Assembly (NCBI GenBank): GCA_051532055.1
Contig: JAOPTX010000004.1
Location: forward strand, 126,930 to 190,929
Direction of reading: 5' to 3'
Length of the DNA: 64,000 nt
Source: Fibrobacterales bacterium
Lineage (GTDB): Bacteria; Fibrobacterota; Fibrobacteria; Fibrobacterales; JAOPTW01
How positions within the stretch are numbered: the stretch's first letter is position 1; every line of letters starts with the position of its first letter. The translations under genes and the position numbers were made by a program. Under the pieces are notes generated by a model. It saw nothing but the letters and a program-made list of their open reading frames with translations, was not told where the DNA came from and did not search any database. Positions 24,645 to 36,433 of the stretch are shown here, one piece after another.

Positions 24645-26591
24645 ATGAGACATATTGATTTAGTTATAAACAGCGAAGGGACAAAAGTTGTCTGTAAAAG
24701 TGTTGCGCCAGGAACCAGTGTTGCTGATTTTCTTGATCGATTACAAGACCTTCAAATTCGAGAAGGATTTTCTAATGATTCATTACAGGATATAATTGAA
24801 CGGATAGATGCTGGGGGAGTAATTGAGCAGGATGTTCTTGTTGCTGAAGTTCCCTCTATTCAGGTAACATTGGCTATTACGGACACTCTACTTTCTTCTG
24901 ATGAAGTGAACCAGCTTGGAACGGAATTGAGACGAGTCTATAAGTCACTTATGAGTGATGATGGCAAAAAGAAAGCTGATTTTGTCTACTATCTTACTGG
25001 TCAAACGCCCTTTATTACCATTGGTAAAAGTCGGAAAAATGTGTATGGAATGGAAGTCATGGTTGATCTCGATAGTGATTTCTTACAGATAGACCCCGAT
25101 GCATTTTCTGTTGATGAGCTGAGTGCTGTATACCAGCTTGTATCAAAAAAAGAGGGTTACGGGGTGCTGAATGATAGGTTGCATCTCAATATCATTGAAC
25201 CGACGCTCATTAATGATGCTGAGACCGAAATGCATTATTATTTTCATCCGGCAGATTTTGGTCAGCAGAAACTCATACAGAGTTTTTTTAATAAAGCTGA
25301 AGAGGGTGTGTCGACTCTTGACCAAGGTGAAATTACTGCATTGCTTAAAGAAAACCTGTCTAAAAAAGTACTCTGTCGAAAAAGACGAGAATCGGTTCCA
25401 GGTCAAAATGGTAGAGTAGTGGTTCACTATATTCCTCCACGAGAACGAGATGTAGAGAATGATACAAAAGTAGATCATAAGGCATGGTCTCAATTCGACA
25501 TGGTGTTTAAGGGCGAGATACTCTGTGAAAAACTGCCAGTTATAGAGGGAGTGGCTGGGGTTGATGTTATGGGGAATGTAATTCCTGTTGAACCGGTTGT
25601 GGATTGTGAGTTTACAGCGGGTGAAAATGTATTGATTGAAGAGCGCGAAAAATCGACTCTTTATAGAGCTGAAAAAGATGGGATTGTTACGATACAGGAA
25701 CATGGATGTAGTATCAATACTAACTTACAAGTAGATGAGGTATCTCAAGAAACCGGAAATATAACCTTTGATCACTCGGTTGTTATAAAAAAAGATGTTA
25801 AAGAAGGCTTTTCAATTACGACAAAAGAAGATTGCATTATCGGCGGGAATGTCGAGAATGGTGCAATAATAGAATGTGGCGGGAATTTAATTGTAAAGCG
25901 TGGTATTTTTGGTGATCAAACAATTGTTAAGGTGAAAGGCAATGCTGAAATAGGCTTTATACAAGAGAGCACCATTTCGGTAGATAAAAATATAATGGTG
26001 GATGGTTTTGTTTATCATGCAAAAATTTTTGCCGGTGAAAATATTGAGGTGAGTGGCAAAAAAATTGTGGGTGATAATAAAGGGAGTGTTATAGGGGGAG
26101 TATTAAATGCTTTTCATTCAATTACCATTCATTCGGTAGGTTCTCATTCAACAAAAACGGAGCTCTTTGCTGGGGTCAACATTGAAAATCTTAGGAACAT
26201 GTATAATCTTCGTGAAAGCGTAACGTTTTGTGATACGCAGGTAGATAAATTTAAAATGTTCCAAGGGGTGGACCTGATGTCCAAAGAGGCTGCTGTGAAA
26301 GTGGCGCAGATGAATACATCTGCAAAACAATTTGTAAAAACAGCATTAGAAAATATAAAAAAAATTCTTGCGAAAAAAAAAGAGCTCCAAAATGCTATGT
26401 CTATAATTGAAGGTCAGGTGTTTCATCCGCAATCTGATTCGTGTGAAATAGAAATTATAAATCAAATTATACCTGATGTACATCTCCGTATTAGTACAGG
26501 ACAATCAGTAATAAAAGGGAAAGATAAGGGAAGAAGTTATGCCTATGTGAATGGGCAGATCATTGCTCGAACAGTTATTAATAAAAAGTAA
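24645..26591 (+). CDS. FapA (DUF342) family flagellar assembly protein A-like, paralogue 1
   Basis: PGQNGR, VDHK...VFKGEILCEKLP, GVDVMG, beta-helix DEVSQETGNITFDHSVVIKKDVKEGF, GSVIGG, GSHSTKTELFAGVN, C-terminal coiled coil. Confidence 0.85.
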   Translation: MRHIDLVINSEGTKVVCKSVAPGTSVADFLDRLQDLQIREGFSNDSLQDIIERIDAGGVIEQDVLVAEVPSIQVTLAITDTLLSSDEVNQLGTELRRVYKSLMSDDGKKKADFVYYLTGQTPFITIGKSRKNVYGMEVMVDLDSDFLQIDPDAFSVDELSAVYQLVSKKEGYGVLNDRLHLNIIEPTLINDAETEMHYYFHPADFGQQKLIQSFFNKAEEGVSTLDQGEITALLKENLSKKVLCRKRRESVPGQNGRVVVHYIPPRERDVENDTKVDHKAWSQFDMVFKGEILCEKLPVIEGVAGVDVMGNVIPVEPVVDCEFTAGENVLIEEREKSTLYRAEKDGIVTIQEHGCSINTNLQVDEVSQETGNITFDHSVVIKKDVKEGFSITTKEDCIIGGNVENGAIIECGGNLIVKRGIFGDQTIVKVKGNAEIGFIQESTISVDKNIMVDGFVYHAKIFAGENIEVSGKKIVGDNKGSVIGGVLNAFHSITIHSVGSHSTKTELFAGVNIENLRNMYNLRESVTFCDTQVDKFKMFQGVDLMSKEAAVKVAQMNTSAKQFVKTALENIKKILAKKKELQNAMSIIEGQVFHPQSDSCEIEIINQIIPDVHLRISTGQSVIKGKDKGRSYAYVNGQIIARTVINKK

Positions 26592-26606
26592 TGTTTTATA
26601 ATTAAG

Positions 26607-27512
26607 TTGGGTGCCATGAATACGAATGATCTTCTTGAAACGAATAGACTGCTTACAGAAAAGGTAAGAGCGCTTGAAGAAGGGACTCAATATATGCAAC
26701 AAATGCAGATGCAGATGGTGCAAAATGAGAGACTGATTGCTATTGGTCAATTAGCAGCTGGAGTTGCGCACGAAATTAATAACCCCTTAAGTTTTGTTAC
26801 TCTCAATATTGATCATCTATCTGAATATGTACTGCAGATTCAAAACCTTGCAAAGGTATGGAGTACGAATGAAAGAGAGCCTTCTCTGAAAGATGTATCT
26901 CAATATGCTCCATTAGTTGGCTCTGCGGGTGATTTACAAACATTACTGAGTGAAACACAAGAGGGGATTGAACGAATAAGGGAGATTGTACAAAGCCTAC
27001 GAGGCTTTTCACGAGTGGATACTGGCGATGGTGTTGTAGAAAATAATATTAATGAGGGTATGCAGTCAACACTCGTTGTGGTACAACATCAAATTAAGCA
27101 TGCAGCGGACGTCGAAGTGTACCTTGGTGATATTCCCCTTGTACCCTGTAATCTTGGTGAAATTAATCAGGTTTTTCTCAATGTTTTAGTTAATGCGGTA
27201 GCTGCTATTCAGAGTAGTCCTCATGAGCGGGGGCGTATTGGAGTAAGAACTTTTGTACGAAATGAGAGTGTGGTGTGTGAAATAGAAAATAATGGCGACT
27301 CCATAGAAGAAAATATAGTTAAAAAAATATTCGACCCTTTTTTTACTACCAAGCGAGTAGGTGAGGGGACTGGATTGGGACTGAGTATTTCACATGATAT
27401 TATTGTAAATAAGCATAACGGATCGCTCTATGTTGATCGTTCTTTTAGCGAGGGAGTTCGTTTCGTAATTGAGCTTCCTATTGGAAAAATTCACCTGTTA
27501 GAAAGGGAATGA
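26607..27512 (+). CDS. Cytoplasmic NtrB-type histidine kinase with no input domain
   Basis: H-box LAAGVAHEINNPL, N-box QVFLNVLVNA, F-box IFDPFFTTK, G2 GTGLGLSIS. Only about 35 aa of coiled coil precede the H-box. The start may be ATG 26616. Confidence 0.9.
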   Translation: MGAMNTNDLLETNRLLTEKVRALEEGTQYMQQMQMQMVQNERLIAIGQLAAGVAHEINNPLSFVTLNIDHLSEYVLQIQNLAKVWSTNEREPSLKDVSQYAPLVGSAGDLQTLLSETQEGIERIREIVQSLRGFSRVDTGDGVVENNINEGMQSTLVVVQHQIKHAADVEVYLGDIPLVPCNLGEINQVFLNVLVNAVAAIQSSPHERGRIGVRTFVRNESVVCEIENNGDSIEENIVKKIFDPFFTTKRVGEGTGLGLSISHDIIVNKHNGSLYVDRSFSEGVRFVIELPIGKIHLLERE

Positions 27513-27513
27513 A

Positions 27514-28422
27514 ATGAGAAGAGTATTGTTTGTTGATGATGAACAGAGTGTTTTGAATGCCCTGGAGAGGACCCTGGAACTTACTAACTATGTAGGTACT
27601 TTCTGTACAAGTACAGCAGAAGCACTGCAGTATCTTAAAAATGAACCATTTGGTTTGGTGATTTCGGATATGCGCATGCCCGAAATGGATGGGGTAACAT
27701 TTATTGTAGAGGCGCATACGATAAATCCACTGGCGATTAAGTTAGTACTTTCTGGGTATTCTGATGTAGAGTCAATTACTCAAGCGATAAACGAAGGTCA
27801 TGTGTGGCGTTATCTCTCAAAAGATTTAAAAAAAGAGGAACTCCTTCTGAATTTGAATAATGCATGGGAGTTGTATGAAGAGCGGAGTGGACGTGCACAG
27901 CTTCTTGAAGAGTTAAATAGAAAAAATCAAGAACTCGAAAATATGAATAATGTTTTAGAAGCAAAGGTTGCAGAGCGTACTTGGGAACTGAATGAGCGAT
28001 CCGAGATATTGAGCGAATTACTCGAAGGTGGAGCTGTAGAAGAATTACTTCAGAGAATTACCACTCTCGCAACTAAAATGTTTCATATTGATGAAATTTA
28101 TGTGTCGGTTCCATTCTTAAATAAGACATTTTCTAGCATCAATACTGAGAGTAGCGTGATTTTGGATACGCTGGCTAAAAATGCTTTTGTTAATCAAAAG
28201 GTGTCAGTAGATGGAGCGGTCGCAGCAATTCCACTAGAAAAATCGGGTAAACAATTGGGGGTATTGGTTGTAAATAATAAAGACCATATACCGGTGACTA
28301 ATATTCAAGAAAAGTTTGCGAGAATCGCAACGCTTATCAGTTTAGTATTATACCAACAGAAAGTAATAGTAGACACGCCTGAAACCCTTAAAAATATAGA
28401 TACCATACTGAGCGAGATGTAA
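27514..28422 (+). CDS. Response regulator: receiver, coiled coil and GAF-like C-terminal domain
   Basis: LFVDDE, ISDMRMPEMDG, LSGY, YLSK; S-helix LEAKVAERT; C-terminal AAIPLEKSGKQLGVLVV resembles GAF. Confidence 0.85.
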   Translation: MRRVLFVDDEQSVLNALERTLELTNYVGTFCTSTAEALQYLKNEPFGLVISDMRMPEMDGVTFIVEAHTINPLAIKLVLSGYSDVESITQAINEGHVWRYLSKDLKKEELLLNLNNAWELYEERSGRAQLLEELNRKNQELENMNNVLEAKVAERTWELNERSEILSELLEGGAVEELLQRITTLATKMFHIDEIYVSVPFLNKTFSSINTESSVILDTLAKNAFVNQKVSVDGAVAAIPLEKSGKQLGVLVVNNKDHIPVTNIQEKFARIATLISLVLYQQKVIVDTPETLKNIDTILSEM

Positions 28423-30437
28423 TGGCTGACGAAATCCTACAGTTTAAAATAAGTGAAGATGAGTATTCGGTTATGCTCGCCTCACTCTACCCAGAGGTAA
28501 CACTTTCGTTAATTCGTGAAGAGCTTGCCCTCCTTGGAGTAACTGAAGGTATACAGATCGCAGCTATTGAAGAAGCAATCAAATCATGTTCAGGAGGGGG
28601 GACTGTACAAAATTTGATTGTTGCACGGGCAGGAGTATTTGGTTTAGAAATCGGCTATATACCTAAAGGGGAAAAAATTGGGTATACAGAACTCCAAGAT
28701 TATGCGAAAACATTTAAATCGCTCTTTTCTTCTCTGAATAATCGAGAGGTTGTTAAACCATCGGCAAGCAAGTTGTATGATAATCTCCTGTTTTTGGCTC
28801 AAGGCCAAGCTGTTTTTCGGGTCGCCAAGACTATGAAAAATGTTCGGGGTGTTGAGATTGATGTTGATCCAGATAGTGATATTATCTCTTTGGATGAATC
28901 TATTGTTGTTGAAGATAAAGGGACTTTTTATGAGTGGTCGGCAGGTGAAGCAGGGTATCTCGTTTGTAATCTTCATAATGAATTGGCGTTATTTTCACCA
29001 TATAACCCGAATAGTGATAAGACTCAACTCTTCTTTTTAGTTGAACCAGTAAGTGTAGGGGCCAAAGAGCAGCAGTTAGCGCTTTCTGAGTATTTAGATG
29101 AAAAGCTCATTAAGAAGCGGGGCCTTACTCTTCAAGAAGTATTAAATAATCCAAAGGGTGACCTCTTGATTCGGAAACAGATAGATGTGATTCCAGGAAG
29201 AAACGCTGAGCTTGAGATTCTTGTTGAGAAAAAAAGAGTTGAGGTTAAAGAGAATGAGCAAGTTGATCATAAAGCGGTGAGTAGTTTTTTACATGTTAAA
29301 GAAGGGATTGCAATTGCCAAGAAAATTCAACCTAAGGAGGGGAAGGCTGGCATTGATATTTGGATGGAGAGTATTCCTGTTGAGCCTATTAAGGATGATG
29401 ATTTTATTGTGGGCGATTTTATAGAGAGTACAGAGAAAGAAGGAGAAATCGAGTATTGCACAACAGTTGAGGGAGTGCTCTATGTAAATGGTAAGACACT
29501 TATGGTCTCCGAGGGTCTTATTATCGAAGGAGACGTCAATGCAGAGACGGGTAATGTTCGTTATGATAAAGATATTGTTGTAGAGGGGTCTGTTTTAGAG
29601 GGTTTTTCTGTTGAATCCGGGGGTAATATTTCCATACAAGGAAGTGTTGCCAATAATGCTCGTATTGATGCGCGTAAAAACCTTGAAGTATTGAAAGGAG
29701 TGTTTGGAGAGGCGACTTCGATCTACGTTAAAGGAAATGCAGAGATAGGGTTTGTGCAAGAAAGTATGGTGCGCATAGAAGGAGATTGCCTTATTGATAG
29801 GTTTCTCTACCAAGCTCGAGTCTTTGTTGGGCGTGAGATTACTGTTTTGGGGAATAAGGTCAAGGTCCAGAAGAAGGGGGCGGTTATCGGAGGAGTGACC
29901 AATGCGGTACATGGGATGACATTGCATTCTGCTGGGTCTATTGCAACCAAGACGGAACTTATTGCGGGAATTGACATTCGGCTTCTTGAACAAATAAAAG
30001 AGCTTGAAGGGGCTCAAGAGGTTCTTGCGCAAAGCATTGTACAGCTAGAGGCGCGTGTTGGGATGGATCTCGCACGAAATGATTCAGTTGAACATCTCAG
30101 AACACTCGGAGAGGCTGATAAAGCTAAAATGAAAGAGAAGCTTGTTGCGCTGAAAGAATCAATGGATAAGCGAGAAAAAGTAGGCAAAGCTTTGGAGCAG
30201 CTTAAAGAGCGTTCTAAAGGAATGATCGCGGAAAGTCCGTTTATAGAGGTGAAAACTAAAGTAATACCAGACCTGCTTATTCGCCTTGGGAGCAGCTTTA
30301 AAGAGATAAAGGAGGAATTGAACGGGATTAAATTCCGTGGACTCCATAAAGAAATTCTAGAAGAGAAAGACGGGGCCCTTATTCGAGAAGATGGTACGAT
30401 TGTCTCGACGGAAAAACATAAAAAAACTGAGGAATAG
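28422..30437 (+). CDS. FapA (DUF342) family protein, paralogue 2
   Basis: FapA_N-like start (FKISEDEYSV...LGVTEGI), PGRNA, VDHK...VKEGIAIAKKI, GDVNAETGNVRYDKDIVVEGSVLEGF, GAVIGG, GSIATKTELIAGID. Start overlaps the RR stop (TAATG). Confidence 0.87.
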   Translation: MADEILQFKISEDEYSVMLASLYPEVTLSLIREELALLGVTEGIQIAAIEEAIKSCSGGGTVQNLIVARAGVFGLEIGYIPKGEKIGYTELQDYAKTFKSLFSSLNNREVVKPSASKLYDNLLFLAQGQAVFRVAKTMKNVRGVEIDVDPDSDIISLDESIVVEDKGTFYEWSAGEAGYLVCNLHNELALFSPYNPNSDKTQLFFLVEPVSVGAKEQQLALSEYLDEKLIKKRGLTLQEVLNNPKGDLLIRKQIDVIPGRNAELEILVEKKRVEVKENEQVDHKAVSSFLHVKEGIAIAKKIQPKEGKAGIDIWMESIPVEPIKDDDFIVGDFIESTEKEGEIEYCTTVEGVLYVNGKTLMVSEGLIIEGDVNAETGNVRYDKDIVVEGSVLEGFSVESGGNISIQGSVANNARIDARKNLEVLKGVFGEATSIYVKGNAEIGFVQESMVRIEGDCLIDRFLYQARVFVGREITVLGNKVKVQKKGAVIGGVTNAVHGMTLHSAGSIATKTELIAGIDIRLLEQIKELEGAQEVLAQSIVQLEARVGMDLARNDSVEHLRTLGEADKAKMKEKLVALKESMDKREKVGKALEQLKERSKGMIAESPFIEVKTKVIPDLLIRLGSSFKEIKEELNGIKFRGLHKEILEEKDGALIREDGTIVSTEKHKKTEE

Positions 30438-32915: not shown

Positions 32916-33073
32916 CTCTCATGGTAGGTGTGTAAGCTACAATTAGCAGGGCGTAGGGGAATATTAAAAAGTAATTATATCTATTTGCCTGCTTTTTATA
33001 GGTTGGCTATTTGGTGAAACTTTGATATACTTCTTATTAAATATTTGAAACATTCAGTTCTATCCAGGAGAAT

Positions 33074-33670
33074 ATGATGGCCACTAAGAAAGCTGCCAAA
33101 AAAGCAATTAAAAAAACTGTTAAAAAAGCAGTAAAAAAAGCAGTTAAGAAAGCTGCCAAAAAAGAAGTAAAAACGACTGTTAAAAAAGCGGTCAAGAAAG
33201 CGGTCAAGAAAGCTGCCAAGAAAGCTGCCAAAAAAGCAGTTAAAAAAGCAGTGAAAAAAGTTGAGAAAAAAGTAGTTAAAAAGGTTGTCAAAAAGGTCGC
33301 AGCAAAAACTGTTAAAGCTGTTGAAAAAAAAGTGGTGAAGAAAACGGTTAAAAAAGTTGTCGCTAAAAAAAGTGTTACTAAGAAGGCTGTTACTAAAAAA
33401 CCTGCATCGTCAAATGCAGTATCAAAACCAACTCAATTTGAAATTTATTCTCCTGACTCAAAAGATGTCTATCTTGCCGGGTCATTCAATGGTTGGGAAA
33501 TGCTCAAAATGAAACAAACTAAAAGCGGTGTTTGGGCAACTAAAGTATCTCTTCGAATTGGTGAGCATCAGTATAAATATGTATTCGAAGGTGTTTCATG
33601 GGAAATAGATCCTGCTGCACCAGCAATATCATCTGAACAAGGTTTGAACAACCTTGTAATAGTAAAATAA
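33074..33670 (+). CDS. Histone H1-like Lys/Ala/Val repeat region fused to a CBM48/AMPK-beta-type glycogen-binding domain
   Basis: Residues 1-109 are KKxx repeats (49 Lys). C-terminal VYLAGSFNGW...SGVW...LRIGEHQYKY...WEIDP...NNLV. AGGAG RBS and its own terminator hairpin. Confidence 0.88.
   Translation: MMATKKAAKKAIKKTVKKAVKKAVKKAAKKEVKTTVKKAVKKAVKKAAKKAAKKAVKKAVKKVEKKVVKKVVKKVAAKTVKAVEKKVVKKTVKKVVAKKSVTKKAVTKKPASSNAVSKPTQFEIYSPDSKDVYLAGSFNGWEMLKMKQTKSGVWATKVSLRIGEHQYKYVFEGVSWEIDPAAPAISSEQGLNNLVIVK
33086..33400 (+). repeat. Degenerate 12-bp tandem coding repeat (KKAV/KKAA/KKVV)
   Basis: For example AAAGCGGTCAAG x2, then AAAGCTGCCAAG and AAAGCTGCCAAA, at 33185-33232. Confidence 0.85.
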
Positions 33671-33683
33671 TCAAGAGGTTTAT

Positions 33684-33701
33684 AGGTGCCTGAGGGCACC
33701 T
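33684..33701 (+). terminator. GC-rich hairpin, probable terminator of the histone-like/CBM48 gene
   Basis: AGGTGCC-TGAG-GGCACCT, 13 nt after the stop, with a weak U tail. Confidence 0.6.
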
Positions 33702-33819: not shown

Positions 33820-34812
33820 TTGCATGTGGTTGCTTTTCGGGCACTGATACTCACAATTATCACCCTATTATTTTCGCTGGTAGTACTCCAGTGTAGTGAT
33901 ACTCAATCAAATAAAAATTCTCGTCTTCATATTACGGTATCGACTTATTCAGTATATGAATTAGTAAATGAACTCGTGCAAGGTGTACCTGGCGTTTCGC
34001 TGGAATTACTGGCACCTGGGAACAAGGGGTGCTCCCATAATTATGTACTCACTCCTCAAAATATGATGACATTGAATAATAGTCGATTGTTAGTCCTTAA
34101 TGGTTTGGGCATGGAGGCGTTTATCACTGAAAAAATATTGTCTCAATATCCAAAACTATTTGTAATTGTAGGGGCCGCTGGAGTTCCTGACTCTTTGGTG
34201 CTCTATAGTGATTCTGAAAATACTGAATTGTCTGGTCTTCATGAAAACCATGATCATCATGAGCATGAAGAAGGCGTTCACCAAGCAAATCCTCACTATT
34301 TGCTTTCGCCACTCGAACGACTCTATGGTGCGCAGTCCGTTGGGGAGGCATTGATGCATATTGATACGAACTACACAAAGCATTATCAAACGAATCTCGA
34401 TAGTATTCGCCAAAGGCATAAAGCCCTGAGTACAATTGAAAGAGTGAGTCGGACAGAGTCTTTTAGGGTGATAACCCAAGATGCCCTTTTTGCCTATCTA
34501 TTGCCGCAACTCAATATAGCGAGTGTCGGTACCCTTCATGCCCATGATGGTGCGCGCCCAACTCTTGCAGAACTTAAGGTGTTGGTTGAACAGCTAAAGG
34601 GGCAAGTGGTCGATGCGCTTTTTGTTGAGAATGAAATGTCCCCAGAGGTATTGGAAACACTCTCACGTGAAGTGTCGGTGCCAGTTGTGTTATGGGAATC
34701 TACGCCTAATGCTCTTGCCCAAACCGATGTGCTTGGCTACTACAAACGGCATGCGCGCAATATGAAACGTTTGAATGAAGTAGTTATATCAACTGAAAAG
34801 GGTCGTGAATGA
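33820..34812 (+). CDS. znuA: Metal (Zn/Mn) ABC transporter substrate-binding lipoprotein, cluster A-I
   Basis: CSHNYVLTP, VLNGLGME, His-rich loop HENHDHHEHEEGVH, NPHYLLSP, RPTLAEL. Confidence 0.85.
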   Translation: MHVVAFRALILTIITLLFSLVVLQCSDTQSNKNSRLHITVSTYSVYELVNELVQGVPGVSLELLAPGNKGCSHNYVLTPQNMMTLNNSRLLVLNGLGMEAFITEKILSQYPKLFVIVGAAGVPDSLVLYSDSENTELSGLHENHDHHEHEEGVHQANPHYLLSPLERLYGAQSVGEALMHIDTNYTKHYQTNLDSIRQRHKALSTIERVSRTESFRVITQDALFAYLLPQLNIASVGTLHAHDGARPTLAELKVLVEQLKGQVVDALFVENEMSPEVLETLSREVSVPVVLWESTPNALAQTDVLGYYKRHARNMKRLNEVVISTEKGRE

Positions 34813-35591
34813 GTACTGCGGTAAGTCTTAAAAATGTGTCCATTAACTTGCATGGGGTTTCGATACTTAAGAACGTCTCGGCGACAATTCCTGTAGGTGG
34901 TTCGACTGCTATAATTGGGCCAAATGGCGCGGGAAAGACGACGCTCTTAAAGGCTATATTAGGTGAGGTGCCTTATGAAGGGGTGATACAATACTCTCAT
35001 GATGAGCCTGGTCAGAGGCCAAGGATTGGGTATGTGCCTCAACGACTCCATTTTGATAGAGGTATACCGTTGCAGGTAATAGAGTGCTTGGCTATGGGGC
35101 AACAGCGAAGGCCATTATGGTTAGGTATTAAAAAAAATGTGCGCAGTAATGCATTGGGGCTTCTTCGGTCAGTGAAGGCTGAGCACCTTGCAGAGAGGCG
35201 TCTTGGAGAATTATCAGGAGGGGAACTCCAGCGGGTACTTCTCGCTTTAGCCCTTCAGCAAGAGCCTCAATTACTGATTCTTGATGAGCCGGCGGCTGGG
35301 GTAGACCCTCATGGCGAGCTGCTCTTTTGTGAAATCCTTGAAGCACAGCGAAAAGAACGGGGATATACACAGCTCATGGTTAGTCATGATTTGGGGACGG
35401 TGAGTAATCATGCGACCCATGTTATCTGTTTGAACAAAGAGGTGGCGGCTGAGGGTGCGCCACATGACGTTCTCACTCAAGAGGTGCTGACCACAATTTT
35501 TGGTGCGCATATGGGGTTAGTGAGTCCTGCAATAGCTTCGGATGGGATGGTGCATAGTCATAATTGCCAGCATCATAAGGAGGATGTATGA
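34809..35591 (+). CDS. znuC: Metal ABC transporter ATP-binding protein
   Basis: GPNGAGKTT, IGYVPQ, LSGGELQR, LILDEP, VSHD, His/Cys-rich tail. Confidence 0.9.
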   Translation: MSTAVSLKNVSINLHGVSILKNVSATIPVGGSTAIIGPNGAGKTTLLKAILGEVPYEGVIQYSHDEPGQRPRIGYVPQRLHFDRGIPLQVIECLAMGQQRRPLWLGIKKNVRSNALGLLRSVKAEHLAERRLGELSGGELQRVLLALALQQEPQLLILDEPAAGVDPHGELLFCEILEAQRKERGYTQLMVSHDLGTVSNHATHVICLNKEVAAEGAPHDVLTQEVLTTIFGAHMGLVSPAIASDGMVHSHNCQHHKEDV

Positions 35592-36433
35592 TTGAGTGGA
35601 TATGTTCAGGTTTAGCGTGTCTTCCTATTGCGGGCATGGAAATGCAGTTTATGCAGCTTGCACTTTTAGGTGTGTTGATCTTGGCGCCCTTGACGGCGAT
35701 GATGGGAGTGCAAGTAGTTAATTTTAGAATGGCTTTTTATGCTGATGCGATAAGTCATACGGCTTTTACGGGAGTCGCTTTAGGATTGCTTTTTGGTTTT
35801 AATCCCTATTGGACTATGCCTCTCTTTGGGGTAGTTGTGGGGGTGGGGATTGTTGCGCTTCAACGAAAAAGCATGTTGGAATCCGATACCATTATTGGGG
35901 TTCTTTTCTCTGGCGTACTAGCTTTTGGTCTGGCGATTGTAAGCAGGGATCGTTCGATTGGTACTGATATAACGCGATTTCTCTATGGTGATATTCTTAC
36001 GATTAGTCACTCAGATTTGACGTGGCTTTCAATTTTGGCAATAATAGTGGTTCTTTATCAGGTGCTTGGCTTTAATCGTCTTATCTATGTAGGGCTCAAT
36101 CCGGTTCTTGCTGAAACACATCGGGTAACCGTTTCCTTTTATCAATACAGTTATGCGGTGCTCCTTGCGTTAGTTGTTATCTTTGCTGTTTGGTGGGTAG
36201 GGGTGTTGTTAGTTACAGGAATGTTGATATTGCCTGCGGCAGCTGCACGTAACTTGTCTCGATCGGCGGGGGTGATGTATTGGTGGGCGTTAATTATTAG
36301 CCTTACTTCTGCGGTAGTGGGGCTCTATATCTCTGCTCAGTCCTGGGCTCAAACAGCAACAGGAGCAACTATTGTGTTGGCTGGTTTTTGTTGGTTTGTG
36401 GTGAGTGTTGGTGTCCGTGCTATAAAAAAATAG
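35588..36433 (+). CDS. znuB: Metal ABC transporter permease (ABC-3)
   Basis: MAFYADAISHTAFTGVALG, DTIIG, FLYGDIL, VGVLLVTGMLILPAAAAR. Confidence 0.9.
   Translation: MIEWICSGLACLPIAGMEMQFMQLALLGVLILAPLTAMMGVQVVNFRMAFYADAISHTAFTGVALGLLFGFNPYWTMPLFGVVVGVGIVALQRKSMLESDTIIGVLFSGVLAFGLAIVSRDRSIGTDITRFLYGDILTISHSDLTWLSILAIIVVLYQVLGFNRLIYVGLNPVLAETHRVTVSFYQYSYAVLLALVVIFAVWWVGVLLVTGMLILPAAAARNLSRSAGVMYWWALIISLTSAVVGLYISAQSWAQTATGATIVLAGFCWFVVSVGVRAIKK

Follow-up and report, generated by a model that had tools for sequence, protein, structure and literature searches.

The window, meaning the whole stretch of 64,000 nucleotides that was analysed, carries a gene for a small protein in which a lysine-rich tail precedes a CBM48 domain. 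The gene and its candidate signals are as follows:

33003..33031, + strand: sigma-70-like promoter with an extended -10 (TTGGCT-17 nt-TATACT, TG ahead of the -10; 9/12 match)
33066..33070, + strand: Shine-Dalgarno motif AGGAG, 6 nt 5' of the ATG at 33077, kept in the congeneric orthologue L104
33074..33670, + strand: CDS of the K/A/V tail plus CBM48 protein, 198 aa from 33074 and 197 aa from the probable start at 33077
33074..33406, + strand: polycationic KKxx tail, residues 1-111, with 49 Lys and a net charge of about +46
33425..33667, + strand: AMPK-beta-type CBM48, residues 118-198, identified by Pfam profiles, the 1z0n match, AF2/Foldseek and alignment of the binding residues
33675..33709, + strand: stem-loop 3' of the stop codon, -20 kcal/mol, with no U-tract and with its inner stem kept in L104

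The true start is probably the second ATG, at 33077, because AGGAG sits 6 nt upstream of it and L104 reads ATA at the position of the first ATG; the strong ribosome-binding site reported in the preliminary description is borne out by this conserved motif. The promoter candidate is weak when taken alone (21 promoter-type sites were found vs 12.6 expected), and both of its hexamers and the TG are identical in L104. The hairpin that had been attributed to the gene is real and partly conserved, but it has no U-tract and is missing from the terminator-scan list. It stands between the gene and an ABC transporter set for zinc/manganese uptake directly downstream (33820-36433 of the window), which comprises a znuA-like gene, an ABC ATPase gene and an ABC-3 permease gene; this linkage is seen in congeneric loci only. 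The region 24645-30437 contains a histidine kinase-like ORF and a response-regulator-like ORF between a pair of long ORFs that look paralogous, of which the second is FapA by Pfam. In RNA run X1, one contig spans 33078-33565 and another fits a paralogue of the gene; since 23/30 bins are covered and DNA may be present, the run neither demonstrates nor ranks expression.

Residues 1-109 consist of 49 K, 24 V, 21 A, 8 T, 3 E, 2 M, 1 I and 1 S, with no Arg and no aromatic residues, and the KK pairs recur with a four-residue period, a signal reached by 0/10,000 shuffles, which confirms the near-pure KKxx character first described for this region. In the full-length AF2 model, the tail is drawn as helices with pLDDT of about 55-77, model residues 91-112 fall below 50, and the domain reaches about 90-95. 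Comparison of the tail with that of L104 revealed an intact frame, an in-frame 8-codon indel and 24 synonymous codon changes, with 45/49 lysines and 33/61 non-lysine positions kept. These features together rule out an assembly or tandem-repeat artefact, and the preferential retention of lysines indicates that selection on the tail is on its charge pattern. The window protein reaches no cut-off of the HC2 or H1-like families (NF038053, 12.5 vs 80 bits; PF07382, unlisted at E 0.1). No catalytic domain was found and the N-terminus, as read from the sequence, contains no hydrophobic stretch, in agreement with the earlier statement that the protein has neither a catalytic domain nor a signal peptide.

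Profile search placed residues 118-197 above the cut-offs of both PF16561 AMPK1_CBM (46.9 bits, cut-off 26.8) and PF02922 CBM_48 (36.7 bits, cut-off 22.4), as expected from the compact CBM48/AMPK-beta-type domain noted earlier. Among solved structures, the glycogen-binding domain of AMPK beta1 (1z0n) is the best match by sequence, at E 6e-13, and the domain on its own, modelled with AF2 (pLDDT 87), is a beta-sandwich like that of the AMPK beta CBM, with a Foldseek TM of 0.85 to 1z0m. Residues W141, K168, W176 and N192 align with W100, K126, W133 and N150 of AMPK beta1; within the family, W141, K168 and N192 are invariant (76/76), and W176 is aromatic in 76/76 (69 W, 6 Y and 1 F). We take AMPK N150, the equivalent of N192, to have a sugar-binding role. 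In AMPK beta1, glycogen binding is lost with either W100G or K126Q, and W133 also binds sugar (PMC6274970). The position of AMPK L146 is occupied by Gln189 in the window protein and T148 is without a counterpart, while the paralogue reads ELGLNN in the L146 region and retains the Leu. In many Fibrobacteraceae members the loop bearing L146 and T148 is absent (gap in 49/76 at that column, an alignment-dependent count), and because of this loss, together with the Gln of the window protein, the affinity for glycogen may be lower. Judged from the aligned residues, the CBM48 very probably binds glycogen.

A small stand-alone homologue of the CBM domain was found in 61/61 Fibrobacterales genomes. Tail length was surveyed across homologues, as suggested in the preliminary description, with a tail defined as at least 25 aa containing at least 20% Lys and at least 75% K/A/T/V/P/S. 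Among the best 80 of 107 GTDB loci, 74 carry such a K/A tail; the six misses are L107, with a 22-aa tail, L130, in which the tail is present and the start miscalled, and four tail-less loci from other phyla. In the same best 80 of 107 loci, the family tails have a median of 61 aa (range 32-125) and a net charge of +7 to +49 (median about +16), with most members between +10 and +25. The tail length, once regarded as exceptional, is matched by family members of 112-125 aa, and the picture of a long-tailed oddity survives in the unusually high charge of the protein but not in its supposed isolation, since it belongs to an order-wide family. Among the loci compared, what is extreme in the window tail is its charge, not its length.

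Two copies of the gene are present in each of the host genome (G000) and G001. The paralogue in G000 (C7:232963-233349) encodes 129 aa with a shorter K/A/T tail, and the tail charge of the window copy is about four times that of the paralogue. A divergent rpe gene lies upstream in 56/81 loci, and likewise at the C7 paralogue, and a lysA-like gene is nearby in 55/81. Because the paralogue has this rpe context of the family, whereas the neighbours of the window gene (response regulator, znuA) recur only in congeneric loci, the window gene is most simply read as a second copy that sits at a new site and whose tail has expanded, the paralogue keeping the family's usual place by rpe. The family tree was built from 45 rows, without L163 and the bulk of the near-identical rows from Fibrobacter, and the order of duplication is taken from synteny only. 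Two loci with unexpected titles, L110 (archaeon) and L114 (Eggerthellaceae), contain Fibrobacteraceae-type genes; as they nest among Fibrobacteraceae with the same neighbours, they are probably mis-binned contigs.

In databases, the close homologues are named Fibrobacterales or Fibrobacter, with merely the label 'glycogen-binding domain-containing protein'. The ESM Atlas yielded Fibrobacterota clusters plus unaligned look-alikes from Bacteroidota and Planctomycetota. Searches with the domain-only alignment A1 (best 120 of 775 and best 150 of 18,259 matches, dominated by multi-CBM proteins) gave 264 proteins, 6 of which pass the tail filter, a count that gives no tail frequency outside Fibrobacterota. 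A further 120/120 tailed matches came from a profile that included the tail; this result is circular and was not counted as evidence.

The domain also occurs in other architectures. Stand-alone CBM48s that are tail-less or short-tailed exist in other classes of the phylum, as do CBM48s behind a putative membrane segment. In L202:934-1722, L216:1984-2619 and L217:2005-2658, a Cys-containing N-terminus, which presumably resembles an anti-sigma zinc finger, is followed by a hydrophobic segment and a C-terminal CBM48. In G066, G070 and G121, a divergent PF16561 domain has a K/A/P tail at the opposite end:

L213:2300-2731, L214:2233-2637 and L219:2978-3406, strand -: divergent PF16561 domain with a C-terminal K/A/P tail, the mirror image of the window protein

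A C-terminal tail also occurs in 5/7 metagenome loci related to this divergent form (L220-L223 and L225), and the C-terminal tails are consistent with more than one tail-CBM fusion event. In Acidobacteriota, a ParA-family ATPase (AAA_31/CbiA) ends in a PF16561 domain (L173:661-1803 and L174:173-1468). G000 has two PF16561 matches, and as both are accounted for by the window gene and its paralogue, no ParA-CBM48 fusion was found in this genome.

The host is a Fibrobacterales MAG of 5.17 Mb that is 94% complete. The preliminary description had reported no glycogen genes near the locus and made its reading depend on glycogen synthesis elsewhere in the genome; seven glycogen genes are present in G000 (glgC, glgA/glgM, glgE, glgB, glgP, malQ and a glgX-like gene), all on contigs other than that of the window. 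GlgC, a glgA_Coryne-type synthase, GlgB, GlgP and MalQ score above NCBIfam cut-offs, GlgE is identified by Pfam, and the GlgX-like enzyme lies just below its NCBIfam cut-off (623 vs 641 bits). In L036:3151-6172 (G000 C16:32650-35671), the gene for the glgA_Coryne/GlgM-type synthase overlaps glgE, an actinobacterial-style maltose-1-phosphate route, and GlgE homologues occur in 41/41 Fibrobacterales genomes. In the 94%-complete G000, ppk1, ppk2 and phaC (PhaC_N) were not found; ppk1 was also not found in G001 and is present in 8/31 genomes, all 31 of which have the tail-CBM protein. Phylum-wide, PF16561 was detected in 62/121 genomes and glgC in 109/121. The 58/62 PF16561 genomes with glgC are at about the base rate, so that co-occurrence is uninformative, and no synteny with glycogen genes was found across the 81 loci. 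In family f5 of the same class, glgC is present in 9/9 genomes and the CBM in 0/9; such glgC-positive genomes without the CBM indicate that the tail-CBM protein is not needed to make glycogen.

The tail is rare in G000, where 10 ORFs pass the tail filter: topoisomerase III, a stand-alone H1-like protein, both CBM48 proteins, GlgE, FtsK, a 411-aa protein and three weaker carriers, one of which reads like IF-2. The strongest tails are on the DNA-associated topoisomerase III and the stand-alone H1-like protein. Topoisomerase III (L043:2014-4689(-); G000 C7:148013-150688) ends in about 50 residues of KKVA repeats, and the stand-alone protein of 120 aa (G000 C32:163944-164303(+)) consists of nearly all KKKVA repeats; the counterpart of the latter in G029 (L233:1402-1734) scores under the HC2 cut-off. 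The 411-aa protein (L041:3229-4461(-); G000 C12:53228-54460) begins with a long KKxx tail, continues through a K/E-rich middle and has a CxxC...CxxC region at its C-terminus, with no Pfam or NCBIfam match. BLASTP of the window tail against its N-terminal part gave no alignment, an uninformative outcome given the low complexity. An orthologue is present in G039 (L228:1366-2433), and the protein is a candidate unstudied nucleoid protein. In G029, the ribosome-silencing factor RsfS (L231:1294-1926) begins with a K/A/T tail of about 70 aa.

A partial DNA-pattern census, in which loci were obtained for 30/40 matches, found the tail in two complete relatives on CBM48, the stand-alone H1-like protein, an orthologue of the 411-aa protein and RsfS, along with an FKBP-like protein with an acidic-interrupted repeat; a tail-only search in three relatives found the family gene alone. 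The tail is an uncommon feature that, among the carriers listed, accompanies the handling of nucleic acid, whether of DNA or at the ribosome. As it is also borne by RsfS, DNA is not the sole plausible partner of the tail. We considered whether the tail is common to all glycogen enzymes and rejected this, the K/A-rich N-terminal extension of GlgE being genus-limited in the readable loci and GlgP having a short basic start only. Starts of GlgE and GlgP were read by a longest-ORF script that left out about a third of the GlgE loci and half of the GlgP loci (wrong strand). Hypergeometric figures were set aside because they were post hoc and assumed a gene count of 4300.

By analogy with PhaF and PhaM, we tentatively propose that the tail-CBM48 protein is a tether joining glycogen to the nucleoid. 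It would be a non-catalytic two-part adaptor, in which the C-terminal CBM48 would grip cytoplasmic glycogen through the AMPK-type W/K/W/N clamp, and the flexible N-terminal lysine tail would bind nucleic acid by charge, without sequence specificity, as suggested by AlgP, PhaF and H1-type tails. Going by these same tails, it is highly likely that the tail binds nucleic acid in vitro. Given its roughly fourfold tail charge, the window copy is probably a tighter DNA binder than the paralogue. Many copies per branched glycogen particle would create a multivalent DNA-binding coat, which would keep the glycogen fixed to the nucleoid or spread out along it, and shared at division. Such tethering would prevent the build-up of glycogen at the pole and the displacement of the nucleoid that are known from E. 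coli. In that species, glycogen is described as collecting in nucleoid-free space, pushing the nucleoid by mutual exclusion and skewing division (accessible part of PMC11042326), and F. succinogenes is described as synthesising glycogen in any growth phase (accessible part of PMC10395257); together these suggest a reason to manage glycogen.

The tether reading is favoured by the intact CBM residues, the glycogen genes of the host, the presence of a homologue in 61/61 Fibrobacterales genomes, the retention of the tail in 74 of the best 80 loci while its length and sequence drift, the K/A/P tails at the opposite end of the divergent CBM, the ParA-PF16561 fusions as a second nucleoid-associated module on this domain, and the presence of topoisomerase III, an H1-like protein and FtsK among the tail carriers of G000. 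Against it stand the 9/9 glgC-positive f5 genomes without the CBM, the missing linkage to glycogen genes, the absence from many Fibrobacteraceae members of the loop with L146 and T148, the tail-less or short-tailed stand-alone CBM48s of other classes, and the tails on RsfS in G029 and on the IF-2-like protein of G000, which offer ribosomes or RNA as alternative ligands. No PhaF-like oligomerisation element is evident in the window protein. The cellular role in nucleoid tethering, which we infer by analogy, is the weak step of the explanation.

If the tail faced RNA instead, with the CBM on glycogen and the tail on rRNA, polysomes or other polyanions, the protein would form a ribosome- or RNA-facing coat, a surfactant limiting phase separation, and glycogen would stay mixed into the cytoplasm without being tied to DNA. 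Polylysine does not discriminate between DNA and RNA, and a similar tail is fused to RsfS. The accessible account of E. coli also has glycogen condensates excluding ribosomes and proteins (PMC11042326). However, the strongest tails in G000 are on DNA-associated proteins, and where granule proteins with tails of this kind have been characterised, their described role is to tether granules to DNA (PMC13052382, PMC9239181); we regard an RNA-facing coat as unlikely.

A role as a granule scaffold or enzyme-targeting factor is also improbable. Here the protein would set initiation, size or turnover, on the model of plant PTST proteins, the tail would recruit acidic glycogen enzymes or space the particles through charge repulsion, and DNA binding would be incidental. 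A non-catalytic stand-alone CBM48 fits such a role, GlgE in the same genus also has a K/A-rich N-terminal extension, and PhaM has further roles in activating the synthase and determining how many granules form (PMC13052382). However, the tail conserves charge alone and not sequence, as would suit a polyanion ligand better than a protein partner; the extension of GlgE is found only in the two genus-g1 loci and is absent from every other locus with a readable start (about 20 of the other 28); and the gene shows no linkage to those of glycogen enzymes.

The protein could also be an H1/Hc2-like nucleoid protein under carbon control, which glycogen or maltodextrin would sequester or release, coupling compaction to storage with no positioning of granules. 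In length the tail comes to two-thirds of the chain of known H1-like repeats, and its charge of about +46 lies between those given for PhaF (+35) and AlgP (+55) in the accessible part of PMC9239181. The yeast PF16561 protein Crp1 is further described, in excerpts, as co-localising with glycogen synthase (PMC11145338) and binding four-way DNA junctions (PMC9180970). Nevertheless, this role is quite improbable: stand-alone H1-like proteins already exist in G000 (C32:163944-164303) and G029, most family tails carry just +10 to +25 (best 80 of 107 loci), and no HC2 or H1-like cut-off is reached. An AlgP-like linker between glycogen and polyphosphate, to which the localisation of AlgP, with its similar tail, to polyP granules would point (available text of PMC9239181), is very improbable, and the polyphosphate link proposed in the preliminary description is weakened, as neither ppk1 nor ppk2 was found in the 94%-complete G000 and ppk1 is present in just 8/31 tail-CBM genomes.

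Returning to the tether, a broader version of the proposal is possible, if slightly more doubtful: a single-protein glycogen-nucleoid tether would be order-wide, bacteria would position glycogen actively by means that evolved more than once, and a pair of weak and strong tails would tune the coupling in this genus. The separate origins would be the N-terminal tail in Fibrobacterales, the C-terminal tail on a divergent CBM elsewhere, and ParA-CBM48 in other phyla. The tail-CBM48 gene itself is real, conserved throughout the Fibrobacterales examined, and uncharacterised. We found no published account of a tail-CBM48 protein or a glycogen-nucleoid tether in a search that mostly excluded subscription papers, and proteome tables of Fibrobacter may list an orthologue. 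Tethers of PHB and polyP are treated in a 2025 review of how bacterial organelles are positioned, in which glycogen has 0 occurrences (PMC13052382). If the proposal is true, a glycogen-DNA linker of 130-200 aa would add glycogen to the positioned compartments, alongside PHA, polyP and carboxysomes. The tether idea is directly testable in cultured Fibrobacter, a rumen cellulose degrader making glycogen throughout growth, and in E. coli glycogen-sensor strains.

Among known systems, the AMPK beta CBM (1z0m/1z0n) has the same fold (TM 0.85) and the equivalents of the W100/K126/W133/N150 set, whereas the window protein is stand-alone and bacterial, has no kinase complex, carries Gln at L146 and lacks T148. 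The DNA-binding part of yeast Crp1 is a lysine cluster. Crp1, like Mdg1 and Atg45, is a non-catalytic PF16561 protein, and it both co-localises with glycogen synthase and binds four-way DNA junctions; it differs in being eukaryotic and much longer, the likeness is known from the CBM only, and no tethering role is described in the accessible portions of the sources. The chlamydial Hc2 and bacterial H1-like proteins (PF07382, NF038053) share the K/A/V/T low-complexity composition, a likeness of composition only, and the window protein meets no cut-off of these families. CipG was considered as a precedent and rejected as a different type of protein, judging by the accessible part of PMC13506006. 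AlgP of Pseudomonas aeruginosa has a four-residue lysine repeat and a net charge of +55 vs about +46 in the window tail, but its repeat is KPAA rather than KKxx, its helical N-terminal domain stands in place of a CBM48, and it belongs to polyP granules, for which ppk1 and ppk2 were not found in G000.

Among the closest parallels are PhaF of Pseudomonas putida and PhaM of Cupriavidus necator, in which, according to the accessible text, a non-catalytic, granule-binding end is joined to a Lys/Ala-rich H1-like end (PMC13052382, PMC11894788, PMC9239181). The window tail is likewise a Lys/Ala-rich, poorly ordered terminal repeat, and the PhaF analogy drawn at the outset is apt in this anatomy of a granule-binding end plus a histone-like end (available text of PMC13052382 and PMC9239181). 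The folded parts, by contrast, are not homologous, and the order is reversed in the window protein, with the tail first. The window protein has no phasin helix, tetramerisation region or phasin family match, and phaC was not found in G000; the cargo of PhaF and PhaM is hydrophobic PHA, whereas that of the window protein would be soluble, branched glycogen. By its profile matches, the window protein is a member of CBM48/PF16561, outside the phasin, AlgP and Hc2 families, and it may work like PhaF and PhaM.
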